In this document: in pieces, positions 7,940 through 23,089 of the stretch
Layout: every line of letters starts with the position of its first letter
Position numbering within the stretch: position 1 is the stretch's first letter
Virus record (IMG/VR): IMGVR_UViG_2537561936_000020
Span: 1 to 27,186 of that record
Length of the DNA: 27,186 nucleotides
DNA from: a virus
Taxonomy: Duplodnaviria; Heunggongvirae; Uroviricota; Caudoviricetes
Reading direction: 5' to 3' (one strand)
Program-made: the position numbers and the translations under genes
The notes under the pieces: generated by a model
Seen by the model: the letters and a program-made list of their open reading frames with translations, nothing else
What the model was told of the DNA's origin: nothing
Database searches by the model: none

Positions 7940-8580
7940 CGTACAGCCTCCGCAATCCGGCCCAGCACCGTGTTATAAATCAGGCGCTCATCTGCCTGGC
8001 TGATACCCAACAGCTCACGTACCGGGTAATCGGTGAAAATGCCCGGCGCAACCTGATCGCGCTCACCGAACTGATGAACGCGGGCAATACGTGCGGCCAC
8101 GCCGCTGTAACCCACCGTCACACCGGAAGTATCCGCACGGGCTTTCAGGTAGCGGGCGGTGCGCAGTTTTACGAACATGGGGACGCGCTTTGTGCTGTCC
8201 TGGTTGATGCGCCGGGTGCGTATTTCCAGAAAGCGGTCGATGTCATCCCGGTAAAACGTGCGGATGTTGTTTTTATCCTCATCCCACCCGGTGATGGTTC
8301 GCCCGTATTTCCCCGTGTCGTGATGCCAGTTTTTCAGCGTGCGTGCTTCGTTATTCCAGATAAAGCGAATGCGTTCCTGTATCCGGGTTACGCGGCGTCT
8401 GCGTGGTGTCCATGCGGTCCCGTCCGGCGCTTTCTGTGACCGGATACGTGCCTGCTGGGCGCGACGTAAATCCTGTGCCAGCTTTCTGGCGATGTTATTG
8501 ATGGCCTGCTGATTCAGGCTGTCGCGGATGGACTCAAAGGTTTCATCCACGCGGGTGAATGCCTTATCCATCGCTTTCAC
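7936..8580 (-). CDS. S: Tail completion / virion morphogenesis protein (gpS-like)
   Basis: Position between R and V with overlapping stop/start codons; basic protein. Longer than P2 S, so the N-terminal boundary is uncertain. Confidence 0.6.
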   Translation of the reverse strand: MKAMDKAFTRVDETFESIRDSLNQQAINNIARKLAQDLRRAQQARIRSQKAPDGTAWTPRRRRVTRIQERIRFIWNNEARTLKNWHHDTGKYGRTITGWDEDKNNIRTFYRDDIDRFLEIRTRRINQDSTKRVPMFVKLRTARYLKARADTSGVTVGYSGVAARIARVHQFGERDQVAPGIFTDYPVRELLGISQADERLIYNTVLGRIAEAVR

Positions 8581-9031
8581 CCCACGTCACATCCTGGAAT
8601 ACATGCGACCAGTCGCCTTCGGAAGATGGCAGGCGGGGTTTTGGCTCCGGCAGGTGTTCTGCCTGCGGTGTGCCCTGACTGCTGCGCGTGATGCGAACGC
8701 GTTCCCGCAGGGGGAGCGTAAACAGGAGATCGGCGCTGTCATCGTCATTGATAACGGCGGAGAATTTGATGTCCTGATTACGCTCAGGGTTGAGCAACAA
8801 CTGTGGCTGATTTTCGGATAACCACGCCAGCAGCGGCAGCGTGAGGTCGTCCAGCTCCCCGGCGTAATCCATGACAAACATCACCATCTGATAGCGGTAA
8901 ACAAACGAGGGCGTTTCTCCGGTCGTTTCAATGTTGCCGCTCTCCACGAAAATGGTGAATTTTTCCGGGTTGGCCTGACACCATCGGCATGAACGGGTCA
9001 TGGCTTCACGCAGGGAATCAGTTTTCAGCAT
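8564..9031 (-). CDS. R: Tail completion protein R
   Basis: 155 aa, P2 gpR-like, located immediately after the lysis cassette. Confidence 0.7.
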   Translation of the reverse strand: MLKTDSLREAMTRSCRWCQANPEKFTIFVESGNIETTGETPSFVYRYQMVMFVMDYAGELDDLTLPLLAWLSENQPQLLLNPERNQDIKFSAVINDDDSADLLFTLPLRERVRITRSSQGTPQAEHLPEPKPRLPSSEGDWSHVFQDVTWGESDG

Positions 9032-9338
9032 GGTTGTTGTCCTCGTTGTTCAGTCGTTGCAGTCTGCGCTGTTCCAGTAATTCAATGGCCCGTTTATCCG
9101 CGTTACAGGTTTCCAGTGCATCCAGAAGGCGGTCGCCCCATATACCGAGATTTCCCCATGTGGGAGTATCAGGGAAGGGGGGAGGCATTACTGGTATGGT
9201 CAGCGTCTGCGGTATAAGCCGGACTGACGGCGCTGGCCGTGGCGCGTTCTGCGTGCCTGCGCAACCTGTCAGTAAAACGAGCGTCAGGCAAAGCGTGGGC
9301 GCATTCATCTTTTGCAATATCGTTGCGTAGCTGTTCAC
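9018..9338 (-). CDS. lysC: Outer-membrane lipoprotein spanin (o-spanin, LysC/Rz1-like)
   Basis: Signal peptide with lipobox LLTGC and a proline-rich mature part. Starts inside lysB in another frame and extends past it, as in P2 lysB/lysC. Alternative start at Met11. Confidence 0.7.
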   Translation of the reverse strand: MNSYATILQKMNAPTLCLTLVLLTGCAGTQNAPRPAPSVRLIPQTLTIPVMPPPFPDTPTWGNLGIWGDRLLDALETCNADKRAIELLEQRRLQRLNNEDNNHAEN

Positions 9339-9576: not shown

Positions 9577-9965
9577 GCCGGATAGGCTCCGTGTGGTAAC
9601 TGAAAATGCGGTCCGTCTTTCAGGGTCTTCCAGTCGCCGCCCCATTCCACCGGAATATTCAGTTCCCGGCTGGCCTGTCTGAATGCTGCTGCGATTTTTT
9701 CGTACAGCGGCCATTCCCATGACACCTGGTTGCCGATATAAGCCACAACATCCACGGCATGTCCCGTAAGGTGGCGGCTGTTCATGGTCTGGCTCTTACC
9801 TGTGGCCACAAGTTGCTTCTGGCGGTAACGGCTGCGCAACCCTTCTGTGATACCAAAATCCACTTCCGAAATTTCCAGTGCCCGTCGGGTCACTTTCACC
9901 AGATCAGGATTTACGCTCTGCAAATTCTTTTCGCTCCGGCTGCTGAATTTAAATGTGTTGCTCAT
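9573..9965 (-). CDS. Endolysin, peptidase M15-type (L-alanyl-D-glutamate peptidase family)
   Basis: 130 aa. SRHLTGHAVDV … DGPHFQL metal-binding motifs typical of M15 endolysins. ATGA overlap with the holin stop. Confidence 0.8.
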   Translation of the reverse strand: MSNTFKFSSRSEKNLQSVNPDLVKVTRRALEISEVDFGITEGLRSRYRQKQLVATGKSQTMNSRHLTGHAVDVVAYIGNQVSWEWPLYEKIAAAFRQASRELNIPVEWGGDWKTLKDGPHFQLPHGAYPA

Positions 9966-13991: not shown

Positions 13992-15743
13992 ATGATTCAG
14001 GACGCTTTTGTGCGCCAGCGTGCGCGGCAACTTTACTGGCAGGGTTATCCGCCCGCAGAAATATCACGTCTGATGGGAATAAACCCGAACACGATTTATG
14101 CGTGGAAAAAACGCGACCAGTGGGATGAAACACCACCCGTGCAGCGTGTCACGCAGTCCATCGATGCGCGCCTCATCCAGCTTACTGAAAAACAGAATAA
14201 AACAGGTGGTGACTTTAAGGAAATAGACCTGCTGACCCGGCAGCTTAAAAAACTGCATGATGGCCAGCCGGATGCGACGGTCACAGGAAAGAAAGGCCGG
14301 GCGAAAAAACTCAAAAATCATTTCACGCCGGAACAGATTGCCGCACTGCGGGAAAAAATCATCAGCAGGCTGGAGTGGCATCAGCGGGGCTGGTTTGACT
14401 CTCTGACCCTTTGCAGGGAAGCCGGGATACGTAACAGGATGATCCTGAAATCCCGACAGATTGGGGCGACCTGGTATTTTGCACAGGAAGCACTGCTGAT
14501 GGCACTGCGTGACGATGTGGCACAACCTTACCAGCGTAACCAGATTTTTTTGTCTGCGTCGCGTCGTCAGGCGTTCCAGTTTAAAAGCATTATTCAGAAG
14601 GCCGCGGCTGAAGTTGATGTGGAGCTGAAAGGGGGCGATAAAATCATCCTCTCCAACGGTGCAGAGCTGCATTTTCTTGGTACTTCTGCTGCGACGGCAC
14701 AGTCCTACACGGGCAATTTTTATTTTGATGAATTTTTCTGGGTCAGTCGCTTTGCTGAACTGCGCAAGGTGGCTGGCGCTATGGCAACCCTCAGCGGACT
14801 GCGGCGCACCTACTTCTCCACGCCATCCACCGAAACGCACGAGGCATACGCCTACTGGAACGGCGACCGCTGGAACGAGAAAAAGGCCTCGCATAAACGC
14901 CAGCGTTTTTCTGTGGACTGGAAAACGCTGCATAACGGACTTATCTGCCCTGACCGGACATGGCGGCAGATTGTCACGCTGGAAGATGTGGTTAATCACG
15001 GCTGGAAACACACCGATATTGACGAAATCCGCGATGAAAACACCGAAGACGAGTTCCGCAATCTCTATATGTGTGAGTTTGTCCGCGAAGGGGAATCGGC
15101 ATTTAACCTGAATATCCTGATTGGCTGCGGTGTTGACGGATACGACGACTGGAAAGACTGGAAACCTTTTGCTCCCCGCCCGATGGGAAATCGTCCGGTA
15201 TGGATTGGGTATGACGCAAACGGCAGCAGTGGCAACGGCGACAGCGGCGCTGTGTCCGTGGTGGTTCCTCCGGCTGTTCCTGGTGGCCGTTTTCGAACGG
15301 TGGAGACGCGACGCGTTCAGGGGCTGGAGTTTGAAGAACAGGCCAGAGTCATTGAAGAGTTCACGTGTCGCTACAACGTGGAACACATCGGCATTGATGT
15401 GACGGGCGGGAACGGGGAGGCTGTTTATCAGATAGTGAAGCGGTTTTTCCCTGCTGCTATTCCGTACACCTTCACGCTGTCATCCAAACGGTCGCTGGTA
15501 CTGAAAATGCTGCAAATAATGCGTGCCGGACGGTGGGAATACGATCGCGCCGAACGCGAGCTGGTCGCGGCCTTTAACGCCGTGCGTAAGGTGAAAACAC
15601 CGGGCGGCTTTATCACTTACGAAACGGACCGCGCGAGGGGGATCAGCCACGGTGACCTTGCGTGGGCAACCATGCTTGCTGTCATTAACGAACCGATTGG
15701 CGGCGAAGGAGAAAACGAGCGTTTCACGGTTATGGAGTTCTGA
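13992..15743 (+). CDS. P: Terminase ATPase (large) subunit P
   Basis: 583 aa, P2 gpP-like throughout. Confidence 0.9.
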   Translation: MIQDAFVRQRARQLYWQGYPPAEISRLMGINPNTIYAWKKRDQWDETPPVQRVTQSIDARLIQLTEKQNKTGGDFKEIDLLTRQLKKLHDGQPDATVTGKKGRAKKLKNHFTPEQIAALREKIISRLEWHQRGWFDSLTLCREAGIRNRMILKSRQIGATWYFAQEALLMALRDDVAQPYQRNQIFLSASRRQAFQFKSIIQKAAAEVDVELKGGDKIILSNGAELHFLGTSAATAQSYTGNFYFDEFFWVSRFAELRKVAGAMATLSGLRRTYFSTPSTETHEAYAYWNGDRWNEKKASHKRQRFSVDWKTLHNGLICPDRTWRQIVTLEDVVNHGWKHTDIDEIRDENTEDEFRNLYMCEFVREGESAFNLNILIGCGVDGYDDWKDWKPFAPRPMGNRPVWIGYDANGSSGNGDSGAVSVVVPPAVPGGRFRTVETRRVQGLEFEEQARVIEEFTCRYNVEHIGIDVTGGNGEAVYQIVKRFFPAAIPYTFTLSSKRSLVLKMLQIMRAGRWEYDRAERELVAAFNAVRKVKTPGGFITYETDRARGISHGDLAWATMLAVINEPIGGEGENERFTVMEF

Positions 15744-16789
15744 TGAGCAGAAAAAATAAAAAAGTGCGCATGAGTTCACGCATTGATCTCGCTGATGCGC
15801 TCAGGAAAGAATCATCGCTCAGTGCATTCACATTTGATGGTCCTTATCGCCTGACCGGGCATGACCTGCTGGACAATATGTACTGTGCTGATAACGGGCG
15901 GTGGTATGAAACCCCGGTGGACTGGTACGGTCTGGCAAGAGCTGCCCGGCAAACGTCCTGGCATCAGTCTGCGCTTTACTTTAAGCGCAATGTATTGCTC
16001 GGTTGCTACATCCCGCACCCGCTGCTTTCCCGGCAGGATTTCTCGGCGCTGGCGCTGGACTGGTTTGTGTTCGGTAACGCATTCCTTGAGCTTCGGAGCA
16101 ATATGCTCGGCGAACCGCTTAAATTACGGCACGCCCTGGCGAAATACATGCGACGCGGAAGCGATCTTGAATCATGGTGGTATGTGCAGGATGGCAAGGA
16201 CGCGTTCCAGTTTCGCCCTGGCAAAGTGTGCCACCTGATGAATCCGGATATTAACCAGGAAATCTACGGCATGCCGGAATATCTTGGCGCATTACTCTCG
16301 GCCAGCCTGTCTCATTCGGCGGACATGTTCAGAAAACTGTATTACGACAACGGATCCCACGCCGGGTGCATCATCTACATCGGTGCAGCGCAGGTAAACC
16401 GCGAAAGCATGGACTCCCTGAAAGAAACGTTACAGGGTGCGCGTGGTGGTGGTGCGTTTAAAAACGTGCTCATCCACGCGCCCAACGGGGGCAAAGAGGG
16501 GGTGCAAATTTTGCCGTTCCAGCAGATCACCGCAAAGGATGAGTTCATGAATGTTAAGGCGGCATCCCGTGATGATGTGCTGGCTGCGCACCGCGTTCCG
16601 CCGCAACTGATGGGGGCAATGCCGGGCGAAAAAAGTGCGTTTGGTGATGTGGAGAAGGCCGCGCGGGTTTACGCAATTAACGAGCTGATGCCCGTCATGG
16701 AGGCCATGAAGCACATCAATGACTGGCTTGGCGAAGAGGTGATCCGCTTTAACCCTTACGCACTGTTAGACACCCAGCCCACATCCTGA
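15743..16789 (+). CDS. Q: Portal (capsid portal) protein Q
   Basis: 348 aa, P2 gpQ-like. ATG overlaps the P stop (TGATG). Confidence 0.9.
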   Translation: MSRKNKKVRMSSRIDLADALRKESSLSAFTFDGPYRLTGHDLLDNMYCADNGRWYETPVDWYGLARAARQTSWHQSALYFKRNVLLGCYIPHPLLSRQDFSALALDWFVFGNAFLELRSNMLGEPLKLRHALAKYMRRGSDLESWWYVQDGKDAFQFRPGKVCHLMNPDINQEIYGMPEYLGALLSASLSHSADMFRKLYYDNGSHAGCIIYIGAAQVNRESMDSLKETLQGARGGGAFKNVLIHAPNGGKEGVQILPFQQITAKDEFMNVKAASRDDVLAAHRVPPQLMGAMPGEKSAFGDVEKAARVYAINELMPVMEAMKHINDWLGEEVIRFNPYALLDTQPTS

Positions 16790-16815
16790 CGCGCTTCGCT
16801 TGTCTGCTGCTTCGC

Positions 16816-16841
16816 CGGGGCATAAAAAATTTATGCCCCGA
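16816..16841. other. Perfect palindrome downstream of Q (possible terminator or part of the cos region)
   Basis: CGGGGCATAAA-AA-TTTATGCCCCG. No U-tract follows on the + strand. Confidence 0.35.
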
Positions 16842-17243
16842 CTCTCCAGCTCCTGTATCAATCAGATAATTTCACGACGCTTTCCTGCTGATTGCCATCA
16901 TCGACAGTCAGACTCTTACGCAATCCCACCGCGTTGACTGCATGTTCTCGCCGTCTCAGTGCGATTTTGACGGCCTTACCTTTCACCCCATCAAATCAAA
17001 AGCTCTCACGTCTTTTTCATGCTCAGCGTGAGAAATATGGCCATTCTGTTGTATCTCTGCGACATCGTTCAGGGAATGCTATTTACCCCCTGAAACGTGG
17101 GCTGTTCCCCCGTCACCTGCGCGCAGAAAAAACGCGTTTTTTTGTGCACGTACGGATCCTTGACGGATCCAGCCACCACGCGGGCCGGAAGTACAAAAAG
17201 TCGTTCAAAAAAATTGTGCAAACTTGTGCACTATCGTGCAAAC

Positions 17244-17266
17244 AAAAAAAGCGCCTTATCGGCGCT
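17244..17266 (-). terminator. Rho-independent terminator for ORF 17276..17545
   Basis: On the - strand: stem AGCGCC/GGCGCT with a 5-nt loop followed by T7, immediately after the stop codon. Confidence 0.65.
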
Positions 17267-17275
17267 TCAAAAGTA

Positions 17276-17545
17276 TCAATTGTTGCTGTTTATTAATCGC
17301 CAACCACGAACATATGCTTCATAGGCATCTCTGTGCCTTACAGTTCCAGCCTGGCTAAACGGAATGTTAGCTAAAACTAAATCATTCTGAGCCATAGCGC
17401 GTCCTTCAAGCGCATCTTTTATGCCTAGCTCAAAAGCACAGGCAGCGCATTTGTGCCGACCTTCTTGTCCTTGATATTCAGGGAGAGACAGAAATGTTGG
17501 ATTATAACGATGAGGGTTCTTGCAAATACCTGTTTTAGCCCGCAC
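17276..17545 (-). CDS. Hypothetical protein in the old/tin-equivalent cargo position
   Basis: 89 aa. GTG start with GAGGT 9 nt upstream; own terminator downstream. Contains a C…H…CxxC pattern; function not recognised. Confidence 0.5.
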   Translation of the reverse strand: MRAKTGICKNPHRYNPTFLSLPEYQGQEGRHKCAACAFELGIKDALEGRAMAQNDLVLANIPFSQAGTVRHRDAYEAYVRGWRLINSNN

Positions 17546-17682
17546 TTTATTTACCTCATAGGAAAAATATGCGTGCCTTTACAGAGGTGCGTGTAAGCAA
17601 TAAAATATACGACGCACATTTTGATTTACTTCGGAAGGCACGCATATCAGGTTAAGTGAGTCCGACCGAGTTTTACGCCCCA

Positions 17683-17715
17683 ATAGTTGCTGCTATTGGG
17701 GCGTTTTGCATGGAC
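17683..17715 (+). other. Stem-loop with short T-tract (candidate + strand terminator or sRNA 3' end)
   Basis: GCCCCAATAG-ttgctg-CTATTGGGGC followed by GTTTTG. Confidence 0.35.
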
Positions 17716-17909
17716 AATGCCGCGCAATTATCTTGTCGCTCACAATGCGAACGATCTTACAAAAAGGCACATTACTGTCAAGATAATTGATCGTTTTAAT
17801 CGATAGATAATAGACAATCTATTTGTTTAACAGATCGATTATTGAAGTAAGTGTGCCAAATGGAATGATACTGTCTCTATAAACGTGAGCATTTTTCGCG
17901 CAGATGCTT

Positions 17910-18221
17910 TTACTCAGGAAATAACGCCCGGATATTCCCAGCCATCTGGCTGGTTATCTTAGCCACTGGTGCAGACTGTGCTTCAAACTTTTTTGAGCTG
18001 ATTTGTGTCACAGGTAACATCTCATCATCAGCCCATGCGGCCAGTCGGTAAGCCTCTGCCGGATTCGTCTTCAGAAGTGCCAGCCCGGCCAGAAAAGCCA
18101 CGCGTTGGCCGCTTTTGCGGGCTTCTGGTGTAAGGCTGTCCAGCCAGGCGCATGCTTCTCCTTCGTTCTTGACGGCGGCGGGCTTCAGATAGAAACTTAT
18201 CCGTCTGGTTGGTGTCGTCAT
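17910..18221 (-). CDS. parR: ParR-like centromere-binding protein
   Basis: 103 aa from MTTPTRRISFYLKPAAV…AWLDSLTPEARKSGQRVAFLAGLAL, recalling the R1 ParR N-terminus. AAGGAG lies 8 nt upstream, inside the parM 3' end. ORF-track start 18356 rejected. Confidence 0.7.
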   Translation of the reverse strand: MTTPTRRISFYLKPAAVKNEGEACAWLDSLTPEARKSGQRVAFLAGLALLKTNPAEAYRLAAWADDEMLPVTQISSKKFEAQSAPVAKITSQMAGNIRALFPE

Positions 18222-19185: not shown

Positions 19186-19215
19186 GTCGGTTTTCCTTAT
19201 GTTGATTAATTAATC

Positions 19216-19328
19216 GTTTACGGGATTCTGAAATCCCGTTTTTGCCTGTTTTGTGCGCGCTTCATATATCGCTGCGCGTTTTTTGCTCATTTACGGGATT
19301 CGTGAGTCCCGTTTCTGTCTGTTTTTTG
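19216..19328. repeat. Candidate parC centromere/operator: two ~40-bp direct repeats each containing a 20-bp palindrome
   Basis: ACGGGATTCTGAAATCCCGT (19220-19239) and ACGGGATTCGTGAGTCCCGT (19293-19312), 73 bp apart, each followed by TTT(T/C)TG(C/T)CTGTTTT(G/T)TG. Lies directly upstream of parM. Confidence 0.6.
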
Positions 19329-22776: not shown

Positions 22777-22958
22777 GGTGTTTGGCCTCTTCGTTTGTGA
22801 GTTTTTGGATACTCACCAACCAGAGTTGAGAATCTCGGGGTGGCGAGACGTACGGGGTTCTCAACACCGGCAAACGAAGAAACCGGCCCGACCGAAGTCG
22901 GCCCCGTACGCCCCACCATAATTCGTGTGCGAAAAAGACGTGGCAATACAGTACGCAC

Positions 22959-22979
22959 AAAAAAACCGCTGGCGCGGTT
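22959..22979 (-). terminator. Rho-independent terminator inside the early operon
   Basis: On the - strand AACCGC-GCCA-GCGGTT followed by TTTTTTT. Confidence 0.55.
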
Positions 22980-23089
22980 GTGCGCTTCGTTTGTCAGCAG
23001 GTTGAGAATCCCGGCACCCGTTTTATGAGGTGCAGCAGAAATGTAACCTGACTGATTGCGGCATGGCAAGCGGTTTTTTTGTGTGTGCA

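Follow-up and report, generated by a model that had tools for sequence, protein, structure and literature searches.

A probable P2-type cos site and an exchangeable cargo gene with a predicted antisense RNA between the portal and partition genes of a P88-like Escherichia coli prophage

The window analysed here, the whole 27,186-nucleotide (nt) stretch at positions 1 to 27,186 of IMG/VR virus record IMGVR_UViG_2537561936_000020, is an Escherichia coli prophage of the Xuanwuvirus type (P88-like phages of the P2 family, Peduoviridae), and our subject is the region between its portal and partition genes, positions 16790-17909. The gene order is that of P2, reversed, with the large terminase gene (13992-15743, + strand) and the portal gene Q (15743-16789, +) followed, beyond this region, by parR (18221-17910, -), parM (19185-18226, -) and the gene for the replication protein gpA (22114-19262, -). 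In the P2 and 186 records the cohesive ends adjoin the portal gene, beyond a terminator, and the accessory genes old and tin lie on the other side of those ends, an order that matches the window. We consider it likely that 16790-17909 is the junction of both genome ends of a P88-like phage as they lie in the prophage, and that it holds a cos (cohesive-end) site and a cargo cassette.

Segment 16700-18000 shows 92-98% identity to complete genomes of P88-like phages. With P88, Chuche, PhiR44_2, P88_4B11 and a Citrobacter phage the similarity runs from the portal gene to ~17240-17260 and then ends, 17240-17915 is common to only three phage records, and in the distant Enterobacter phage phiT5282H the match is confined to 17096-17246 (75.6% identity). 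Because similarity to most relatives breaks at ~17240-17260, we regard 16790-17246 as a conserved phage element and 17247-17909 as exchangeable, which would make the non-coding cos region and the swappable cargo two unrelated modules. The G+C content is 0.37-0.46 in the cargo cassette against 0.52-0.59 around it. An initial annotation, made from the letters alone, had treated the region as one gene-poor structured stretch with a single small gene. Every palindrome, repeat and hairpin that it listed is present, some of them 1-8 bases from where it placed them, and its AT-rich stretch has a G+C content of 0.37-0.42 compared with 0.52-0.59 in the flanks, with GATC at 17753, 17789 and 17833 and repeated AGATAAT motifs. 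However, it missed or blurred the two-module nature of the region and two further points, namely that the repeats of 17567-17850 are the regulatory leader of the cargo gene, not part of cos or of the partition cassette, and that the 89-amino-acid (aa) cargo protein belongs to a large uncharacterised family that is linked elsewhere to GATC-type restriction-modification systems.

From synteny with P2, the region had been expected to include cos, and alignment to P2 and 186 had been proposed as a check. After linking the right end to the left end in each of P2 and 186, we used MAFFT to align the resulting junctions to the window's minus strand. The 19-mer GGTGACGGGGGAACAGCCC (17117 to 17099) falls in the same columns as the annotated 19-nt ends of P2 (GGCGAGGCGGGGAAAGCAC) and 186 (GGCGTGGCGGGGAAAGCAT) and is identical to that of P2 at 13 of 19 positions. 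In all three phages, moreover, a single TGCA(C/T) precedes the end by ~30 nt with a short inverted repeat in between, and another three TGCA(C/T) precede it by ~100-120 nt, so that a P2/186-like cohesive-end sequence with P2-like flanking repeats occupies 17099-17246, as anticipated. Exactly this 19-mer stands between diverged flanks in phiT5282H, a match that is independent evidence because it came from a BLAST search. Of 120 loci returned when IMG/VR was scanned with the candidate end's first 16 bases, 107 have TGCAY repeats upstream, and a GCGCGCA-GGTGACGGGGGAACAGCCC block is constant across several IMG/VR lineages whose flanks differ on both sides; these loci were selected by the 16-mer itself, so its constancy among them is not independent evidence. 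A 55-bp conserved cos core has been described for the P2 family, and the experimentally measured end of Ralstonia phage phiRSA1 begins GGTGAGGCGGGG (PMC5694545). Together, these comparisons lead us to place a candidate cosN, with a 19-nt cohesive end, at 17099-17117 on the minus strand with good confidence.

Several observations weigh against this placement. None of the record or IMG/VR contig ends coincides with the proposed cosN, and for this reason we infer its exact nick positions. P88_4B11 (NC_049391.1, present among our loci as L003 and L006), the one linear record that derives from virions, starts at window position 17195/17196, ~78 nt from cosN, and lacks 5 bp at the 3' edge of the 19-mer (GGTGACGGGGGGACAG-----GTTTCAG). 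Furthermore, TGCGCGC lies on the opposite side of cosN relative to P2, so that a shifted alignment is conceivable, although such a shift would turn the overhang into an AT-rich self-complementary palindrome. Separately, nothing was found in the literature on the 16-mer of cos, the sequence of the hairpin or the motif of the protein.

Between the portal gene and cosN lies a non-coding arm of ~260 bp (16842-17098), which contains frameshifting 1-nt indels and conserved islands (16960-16979) and is kept by every Xuanwuvirus record, though not by phiT5282H, which is more distant. At its portal side, 27 nt past the Q stop codon, is the palindrome CGGGGCATAAA-AAA-TTTATGCCCCG, noticed initially as a perfect palindrome after Q, whose 11-nt arms (16816-16826 and 16830-16840) are indeed 100% complementary. 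It stands in the position of terminators tQ of P2 and tW of 186 and is the most conserved non-coding stretch, with 0.001 substitutions per site compared with 0.034 in the 3' end of the portal gene, among 65 haplotypes of 16760-17260. It has a U-tract on neither strand and was not flagged as terminator-like by our terminator scan, and may be a terminator or have some other role. On the cargo side, the core flank (17117-17149) comprises the palindrome CTGCGCGCAG (17117-17126), A6CGCGT7 (17127-17143, one base from its first reported position) and a GTGCAC (17144-17149). The frame GCAC-AAAAAA...GCGCGCA is retained in all lineages, whereas only the Xuanwuvirus lineage has A6CGCGT7 as a perfect palindrome, other lineages having AAAAAACGAAGCAAATGTCG. 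Next comes the direct repeat ACGGATCC, present twice 11 bp apart with a GATC in each copy (17152-17170) and kept in Xuanwuvirus-type loci, and then three (T/C)GTGCA(A/C) repeats (17214-17241), which match three TGCAT at equal distance from cosN in P2 and 186. The initial report of GTGCA repeats was correct, with + strand copies at 17216, 17226 and 17236 in exact 10-bp phase and a fourth at 17144, against a background on that strand of about one per 600 nt over the whole window. Since the repeats are conserved in three diverged phages, we propose that they are terminase recognition sites, which would position the terminase for staggered nicks as in P2 and 186.

The proposed site thus resembles the cos of P2, 186 and P4 (19-nt 5' cohesive ends; 55-bp core of Ziermann & Calendar 1990) in adjoining the portal gene beyond a hairpin, in having a G-rich 19-mer in the matching columns with a short inverted repeat just before it, and in the one-plus-three layout of TGCA(C/T) on the cargo side. 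However, its end sequence differs from those of P2 and P4, with which it is probably not interchangeable, its portal-side arm is ~260 bp and not ~140 bp as in P2, TGCGCGC flanks cosN on the opposite side, the A6CGCGT7 palindrome is confined to its lineage, and the ends themselves are read from the sequence. The region also bears out the earlier view that it holds only one convincing gene, as a 134-aa + strand open reading frame (ORF) across cos (16892-17296) is broken by single-base indels among the 65 haplotypes, and RefSeq annotates no gene within 16800-17246. In P88 (NC_026014.1; L002, 4159-4450), two coding sequences for hypothetical proteins of 42 and 47 aa are annotated across cos and are probably spurious. 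In another locus (L088, minus orientation, ~49), an apparent junction exactly at the candidate cosN resembles an IS1 end that would stop 2 nt upstream of it; if this likeness holds, that prophage has a cos that is probably inactivated.

Beyond the cos-side repeats, the content of the locus varies between relatives. The distance from the parR stop to cosN ranged from 208 to 3841 bp among 113 related prophage loci, and the cargos include two small genes in P88, a 196-aa protein in P88_4B11, and an S8 peptidase with an AAA ATPase in phiT5282H. A hotspot between gpA and gpQ, next to cos, has been described in P2-like phages, with the present locus listed in Table S5 of that study; the cargo shown there so far is defence and not counter-defence, ~1/4 of P2-like phages have a partition system in the hotspot, and the window cargo does not appear among the tested systems tabulated there (Rousset et al. 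2022, PMC9122126). By its sequence relationships, 17247-17909 reads as a horizontally exchanged cargo of this cos-proximal hotspot. The cos type of the window was found in 1133 of 5426 complete E. coli genomes, and the cassette in 166 of the 5426 (~13% of these prophages), always complete and always beside parR. Like the old/tin locus of P2, the cargo lies between gpA and gpQ beside cos, is low in G+C, has its own promoter and terminator, and varies in content among close relatives, although in the window the parMR operon separates gpA from the cargo, and the cargo matches no known defence family.

The cargo gene itself, proposed initially as an 89-aa ORF with a GTG start and its own terminator, is a real gene. 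It occupies 17276-17545 (-), with a Shine-Dalgarno (SD) sequence GAGG (17557-17554) 8 nt upstream of the start codon, and is followed by a terminator-like site (17268-17248, -) with an 8-bp stem, five G-C pairs and a T-run. This intrinsic terminator forms the cos-side boundary of the variable cassette, as similarity to most relatives stops there and a terminator of its own follows the stop codon in each diverged cassette. The National Center for Biotechnology Information pipeline PGAP leaves the 89-aa gene uncalled in many E. coli RefSeq genomes that carry an identical or near-identical cassette. Among loci L020-L139, parR falls into allelic classes with 100%, ~83% and ~54% identity to that of the window; the identical class always accompanies the 89-aa cassette, and exchange breakpoints seem to include parR. 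A diverged hotspot cassette (L111, cos at 9875, cassette ~8420-9260) has a second gene, encoding 95 aa (MTDIKRSDLFYDDYSW...), between the homologue of the 89-aa gene and cos, and a clear terminator after parR. In a Providencia-type prophage (L140, L176, L177), a member of the family with an equivalent leader lies on the opposite strand between genes for a late Q-like antiterminator and a holin and endolysin; the slot between such an antiterminator and the lysis genes is the classic moron slot of lambdoid phages.

We compared the cassette with diverged copies borne by enterobacterial phages, whose proteins are 50-64% identical, from the hotspot (L111, L182, L183), the lambdoid Providencia prophage and metagenomes (L184-L186, L190-L191, L196-L197). 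Their upstream DNA is mostly unalignable, but an architecture is common to all, consisting of a sigma-70 promoter, a 5' hairpin, a GC-rich hairpin, a long inverted repeat, the heptamer TGTAAAG, SD and gene, and an intrinsic terminator. In the window, the predicted promoter (17736-17781, -) has TTGACA at 17781-17776 and TAAGAT at 17759-17754 separated by 16 nt, with a predicted start near 17747 and the 5' hairpin at 17750-17736. TTGACA-16-TAGGATC is conserved in the 57-63%-identical cassette of L111/L183. The sense leader of ~200 nt contains three hairpins and folds with z = -4.9. Its third hairpin (17567-17647, -) has 13-bp perfect arms (17647-17635 and 17579-17567); this is the 13-bp inverted repeat reported earlier, which is perfect, with 55 nt between its arms at 17567-17579 and 17635-17647, and has a chance expectation in 1.3 kb of ~0.01 by our own estimate. 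The 13-bp and 12-bp perfect inverted repeats of the cassette are both far above chance for 1.3 kb. Hairpin 3 encloses the core of a predicted promoter on the opposite strand, and an equivalent inverted repeat, with other sequence and spacing, is found in every lineage. Beside it is TGTAAAG (17583-17577, -), which is invariant and ends 6-33 nt ahead of the called start codon. An inverted repeat flanking the sense promoter (17725-17735 and 17779-17789) was given no weight, being absent from the L111-type cassette and, at 11 bp, near chance.

On the + strand, a predicted cis-antisense RNA unit spans 17577-17708. CTTTACA (17577-17583, with the -35 at 17578-17583) is separated by a 17-nt spacer from the -10 TAAAAT (17601-17606), and an RNA of ~95 nt would start near 17613 and end at a terminator hairpin (17675-17704) followed by TTTTG. 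This hairpin is the + strand stem-loop with a T-tract of the initial annotation, which was right about its presence but had shifted it to 17683-17715; its 12-bp arms lie at 17675-17686 and 17693-17704. CTTTACA, exactly 17 nt and TAnnnT recur in all nine distinct sequences (window, L182/L111, L184, L186, L190, L191, L196, L140 and L176), which represent at least six diverged lineages and have the -10 variants TAAAAT, TACGAT, TAGACT, TAGTCT and TAATCT. The GC-rich hairpin lies 30-65 nt downstream of this promoter, and the GCCC/GGGC at the base of its stem is constant whereas the upper stem varies between lineages yet stays complementary. MAFFT lost the register of the stem, so pairs were counted from the stem base by script; 92 of 100 cells were standard pairs compared with 72.7 +/- 2.7 after shuffling of partners, none of 2000 shuffles reached 92, and five positions showed 2-4 pair types. 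A U-rich stretch precedes the hairpin on the antisense strand and a T/C-rich run follows it (TTTTGCAT, TTTTCCTAT, CTTCTATAT, TTTCCCTTAT, TTTCCCTTTG), the sense side being A-rich. The predicted RNAs are 74-100 nt long and fold into a 5' region and a terminator with z of -1.4 to -6.7. The small RNA that had been raised as a possibility is therefore supported by comparison, as the + strand promoter/terminator pair is kept in diverged cassettes, and we judge, with slightly less assurance than for the locus as a whole, that a cis-antisense small RNA is probably made from the leader.

Against this stand the antisense terminator, which has only four U in the window and a weak tail in the Providencia lineage (TTCCCTAT), and the fact that the hairpin pairs nearly as well on the sense strand (91 compared with 92 of 100 cells), so that its strand assignment rests on the tail and the promoter. 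The case is one of conservation and covariation, from which transcription of either strand is predicted. A search of 16790-17920 against Rfam found no family at gathering score, and the best sub-threshold matches covered the terminator hairpin only (ctRNA_pGA1, 22 bits compared with a threshold of 45; sar, 22 compared with 43). The predicted RNA would be fully complementary to the middle of the leader, and as it starts 68 nt upstream of the GTG it leaves the SD sequence and start codon uncovered. Elsewhere in the window, 22836-23033 (-) matches the Rfam families C4 antisense RNA (79 bits) and isrK (62 bits) above gathering score, which suggests a P1/P7-type antisense-controlled antirepressor module inside this P2-family prophage.

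The sense promoter is also associated with GATC. One GATC (17753-17756) overlaps its -10, and others at 17789 and 17833 lie in an AT-rich upstream block (17785-17850) with near-palindromes (ATCTGTTAAACAAAT and ATAGAT-N8-ATCTAT). Other lineages have equivalent promoters, usually with several GATC nearby; the GATC overlaps the -10 in the window, L183 and L196 and adjoins it in L140. The window as a whole is poor in GATC, with 63 compared with 96 +/- 8.5 expected from dinucleotide-preserving shuffles, and has three within 84 bp at the cargo promoter, and enterobacterial cassettes have 2-5 in their 250-nt upstream regions. The upstream block is a possible operator or Dam/SeqA-sensitive region, and the operator array suggested initially is plausible to the extent that palindromes and GATC upstream of the promoter are kept between two diverged cassettes. 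Combined with the Dam-type link of the protein family described below, the GATC cluster suggests methylation-sensitive expression or autoregulation at these sites, an idea that we advance tentatively and would rate somewhat below even. It is weakened by the fact that three GATC in 84 bp are only mildly unusual for a 27-kb scan, and by the finding of no GATC enrichment upstream of the family at large (3.4 per kb compared with a background of 3.0 per kb); upstream enrichment is limited to the enterobacterial phage-borne subfamily.

The 89-aa protein (hereafter p89) matches phrog_3941, a family of unknown function, with E = 9.1e-49 (residues 4-89 to profile positions 1-86 of 86), and its database names are all "hypothetical". 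Of the profile and structure searches that had been proposed for it, the former gave this PHROG match but the latter no match in the PDB. A word-indexed search with the single protein recovered near-identical clusters only, and a full HMMER scan and a profile were needed to bring out the family, which contains 173 clusters at 50% identity (HMMER scan) and 1578 at 90% (profile search), mostly of 84-92 aa. Cys8, His12, Arg30, His31, Cys33, Cys36, Gln65, Arg70 and His71 are invariant. The protein is an internal duplication of a ~40-aa unit, LPxxQxGxxRH(K)CxxCAYxxG, with the cysteines lost in the second copy, and is hydrophilic and mildly basic. AlphaFold with a 59-sequence alignment predicted a confident soluble fold (predicted local distance difference test score, pLDDT, 89; predicted template-modelling score, pTM, 0.82); the single-sequence model was poor (pLDDT 43), and the alignment-based model alone is usable. 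Ribosome modulation factor, the top Foldseek match in the PDB (E = 1.1), was rejected, as profile comparison gave it only 3% probability. The invariant residues make it probable that p89 binds zinc.

The wider family points to restriction-modification. Two tandem copies of the cysteine-bearing unit form the N-terminus of proteins with HNH and NOV_C (DUF3883) nuclease domains, and a single copy is found at the C-terminus of DndB/DGQHR and WYL proteins; in the fusion proteins examined (P0053, P0065, P0067, P0069, P0076, P0047, P0099, P0107 and P0021) the region of the fused unit lies outside Pfam coverage. In all six Bacteroidota-type contexts examined, the small gene lies in or beside a cassette with a Dam-family methyltransferase (TIGR00571) and a type II restriction enzyme called by PADLOC, or a DpnII-type cassette. 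Likewise, in ~45 of 79 metagenome loci with 1.5 kb of flank, which show several gene orders and a G+C content of 0.26-0.62, a Dam-family methyltransferase, a DpnII-type or related restriction enzyme or a DpnA-like methyltransferase adjoins the gene. Judged by these neighbourhoods, the family appears to be an accessory of GATC-type restriction-modification systems. Because its relatives in other phyla lie in Dam/DpnII-type cassettes or are fused to HNH and NOV_C nucleases, the most likely role for p89 is that of a small accessory or regulatory module which binds nucleic acid and is linked to GATC methylation systems. As in controller (C) and accessory proteins of type II systems, p89 homologues are small proteins inside Dam-family/DpnII-type operons; unlike C proteins, p89 has no Xre-type helix-turn-helix and no Pfam, NCBIfam, PDB or BFVD match, and is built from a duplicated ~40-aa module, C-x3-H...RH-x-C-x2-C. 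It may be objected that the protein gave no match in Pfam, NCBIfam, PADLOC, PDB or BFVD, that its binding of zinc and nucleic acid is read from invariant residues and domain fusions, and that the E. coli gene has no adjacent restriction-modification partner. A more specific proposal, which we think rather unlikely, is that the family is a new small zinc-finger module which senses the state of Dam-type GATC sites, acting as a controller or targeting subunit in DpnII/Dam operons and in HNH/NOV_C fusions, and that the phage copy is an orphan captured moron, kept under a Dam-sensitive promoter and a cis-antisense RNA, for phage exclusion or counter-restriction.

We propose that the cassette would work as a self-contained minus-strand unit, with a sigma-70 promoter, a leader of ~200 nt, the p89 gene and an intrinsic terminator. 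The opposite-strand promoter within the leader would produce the ~95-nt antisense RNA, ending at the GC-rich hairpin, and its pairing with the mRNA, possibly together with Dam methylation of the promoter, would keep p89 low in the lysogen; the antisense RNA may repress or activate. In IS10, transposase is controlled by the Dam-sensitive promoter pIN and the antisense RNA-OUT, and SymE/SymR is a type I toxin-antitoxin pair with a soluble toxin. The cassette resembles IS10 in its GATC over the sense -10 and in a short cis-antisense RNA predicted from the mRNA 5' region, and resembles SymE/SymR in that such an RNA is predicted from within this region. It differs from both in that the antisense RNA would cover the middle of a 200-nt leader and not the ribosome-binding site, and it contains no transposase.

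The same layout would also suit a type I toxin-antitoxin pair, in which p89 would be toxic when overproduced and the cis-antisense RNA would be its antitoxin, either stabilising the prophage, which has plasmid-type parMR genes as well, or bringing about abortive infection. The overlap of the predicted RNA with the mRNA leader, its conserved and covarying promoter and terminator, the tight multi-layer control of a self-contained cassette, and its place in a defence hotspot beside partition genes all agree with this, and type I toxins need not be membrane peptides, SymE and RalR being soluble. However, p89 is a hydrophilic protein of 89 aa and not the small, usually hydrophobic peptide of such pairs, most of its relatives (at least 1500 clusters) are in restriction-modification operons with no sign of an antisense unit, and the antisense RNA misses the SD sequence and start codon. 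A toxin-antitoxin role thus fits the RNA layout but not the protein or the wider family, and we regard it as doubtful. Alternatively, p89 could be an anti-restriction or counter-defence factor, that is, a phage copy of a GATC-type accessory made briefly on entry to block such systems or methylation-dependent nucleases. This is consistent with the gene neighbourhoods, as homologues are embedded in Dam-family/DpnII-type cassettes across phyla, nucleases carry the domain in fusions where it is likely to serve in recognition, and the gene occupies moron positions in two unrelated prophages, P2-like by cos and lambdoid in Providencia between Q and the lysis genes; a methylation-sensitive promoter with an antisense RNA would moreover allow a burst of expression when unmethylated or newly replicated DNA enters. 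On the other side, the hotspot cargo shown so far is defence, and DNA of phages grown in E. coli is already Dam-methylated and hence DpnII-resistant, which leaves a counter-restriction role unlikely in our estimate.

Two other explanations concern the leader. The + strand elements might include no RNA gene, the hairpins acting in the sense mRNA, on stability or translation, or as a barrier to read-through, and TGTAAAG being a protein-bound leader motif. The GC-rich hairpin does pair equally well on the sense strand, and three leader hairpins, often with a weak SD-sequestering hairpin, are present in all lineages, but a sense-only role explains neither the exact 17-nt spacing to TAnnnT in nine sequences with an unalignable spacer nor why the T/C-rich run is always on the antisense strand, opposite an A-rich sense side, and to us it seems improbable. 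The repeats of 17546-17909 could instead be the parC centromere or operator of parMR, being directly downstream of parR; the parR allele 100% identical to that of the window is always found with the cassette, and centromeres typically have iterated motifs. This is very hard to sustain, as the block is missing from most Xuanwuvirus prophages that carry parMR, some of which have only ~60 bp between parR and the cos repeats (208 bp from parR to cosN), it travels with the p89 gene even beside a 54%-identical parR (L111), and the Providencia lambdoid cassette has an equivalent GATC-rich promoter with no parMR. Better candidates for parC are two ACGGGA-N7-ATCCCGTAAA palindromes upstream of parM (~19215-19312). 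One copy occupies the spacer between gpA and parM and the other, ~72 bp away, the 3' end of gpA; both are candidate ParR-binding sites.

The cos site and the hotspot are members of well-known kinds, whereas the antisense-RNA control unit of the cargo is apparently undescribed, and the region as a whole is of moderate interest and directly testable. A probable packaging site is now pinned for a prophage type found in ~1/5 of complete E. coli genomes, and its placement aids the calling of prophage boundaries, the prediction of transduction and of compatibility with satellites, and the recognition of spurious ORFs across cos. The p89 cassette ranks among the commoner cargos at the P2 cos hotspot, carried by ~13% of this prophage type and often overlooked by annotation pipelines, and it gains testable content in the form of an unannotated family of more than 1500 clusters, a fold without a PDB match, a link to GATC restriction-modification and a conserved phage antisense unit. 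If p89 does read or control adenine-methylation systems, it would be a new accessory component of well-studied restriction-modification families, borrowed by phages.

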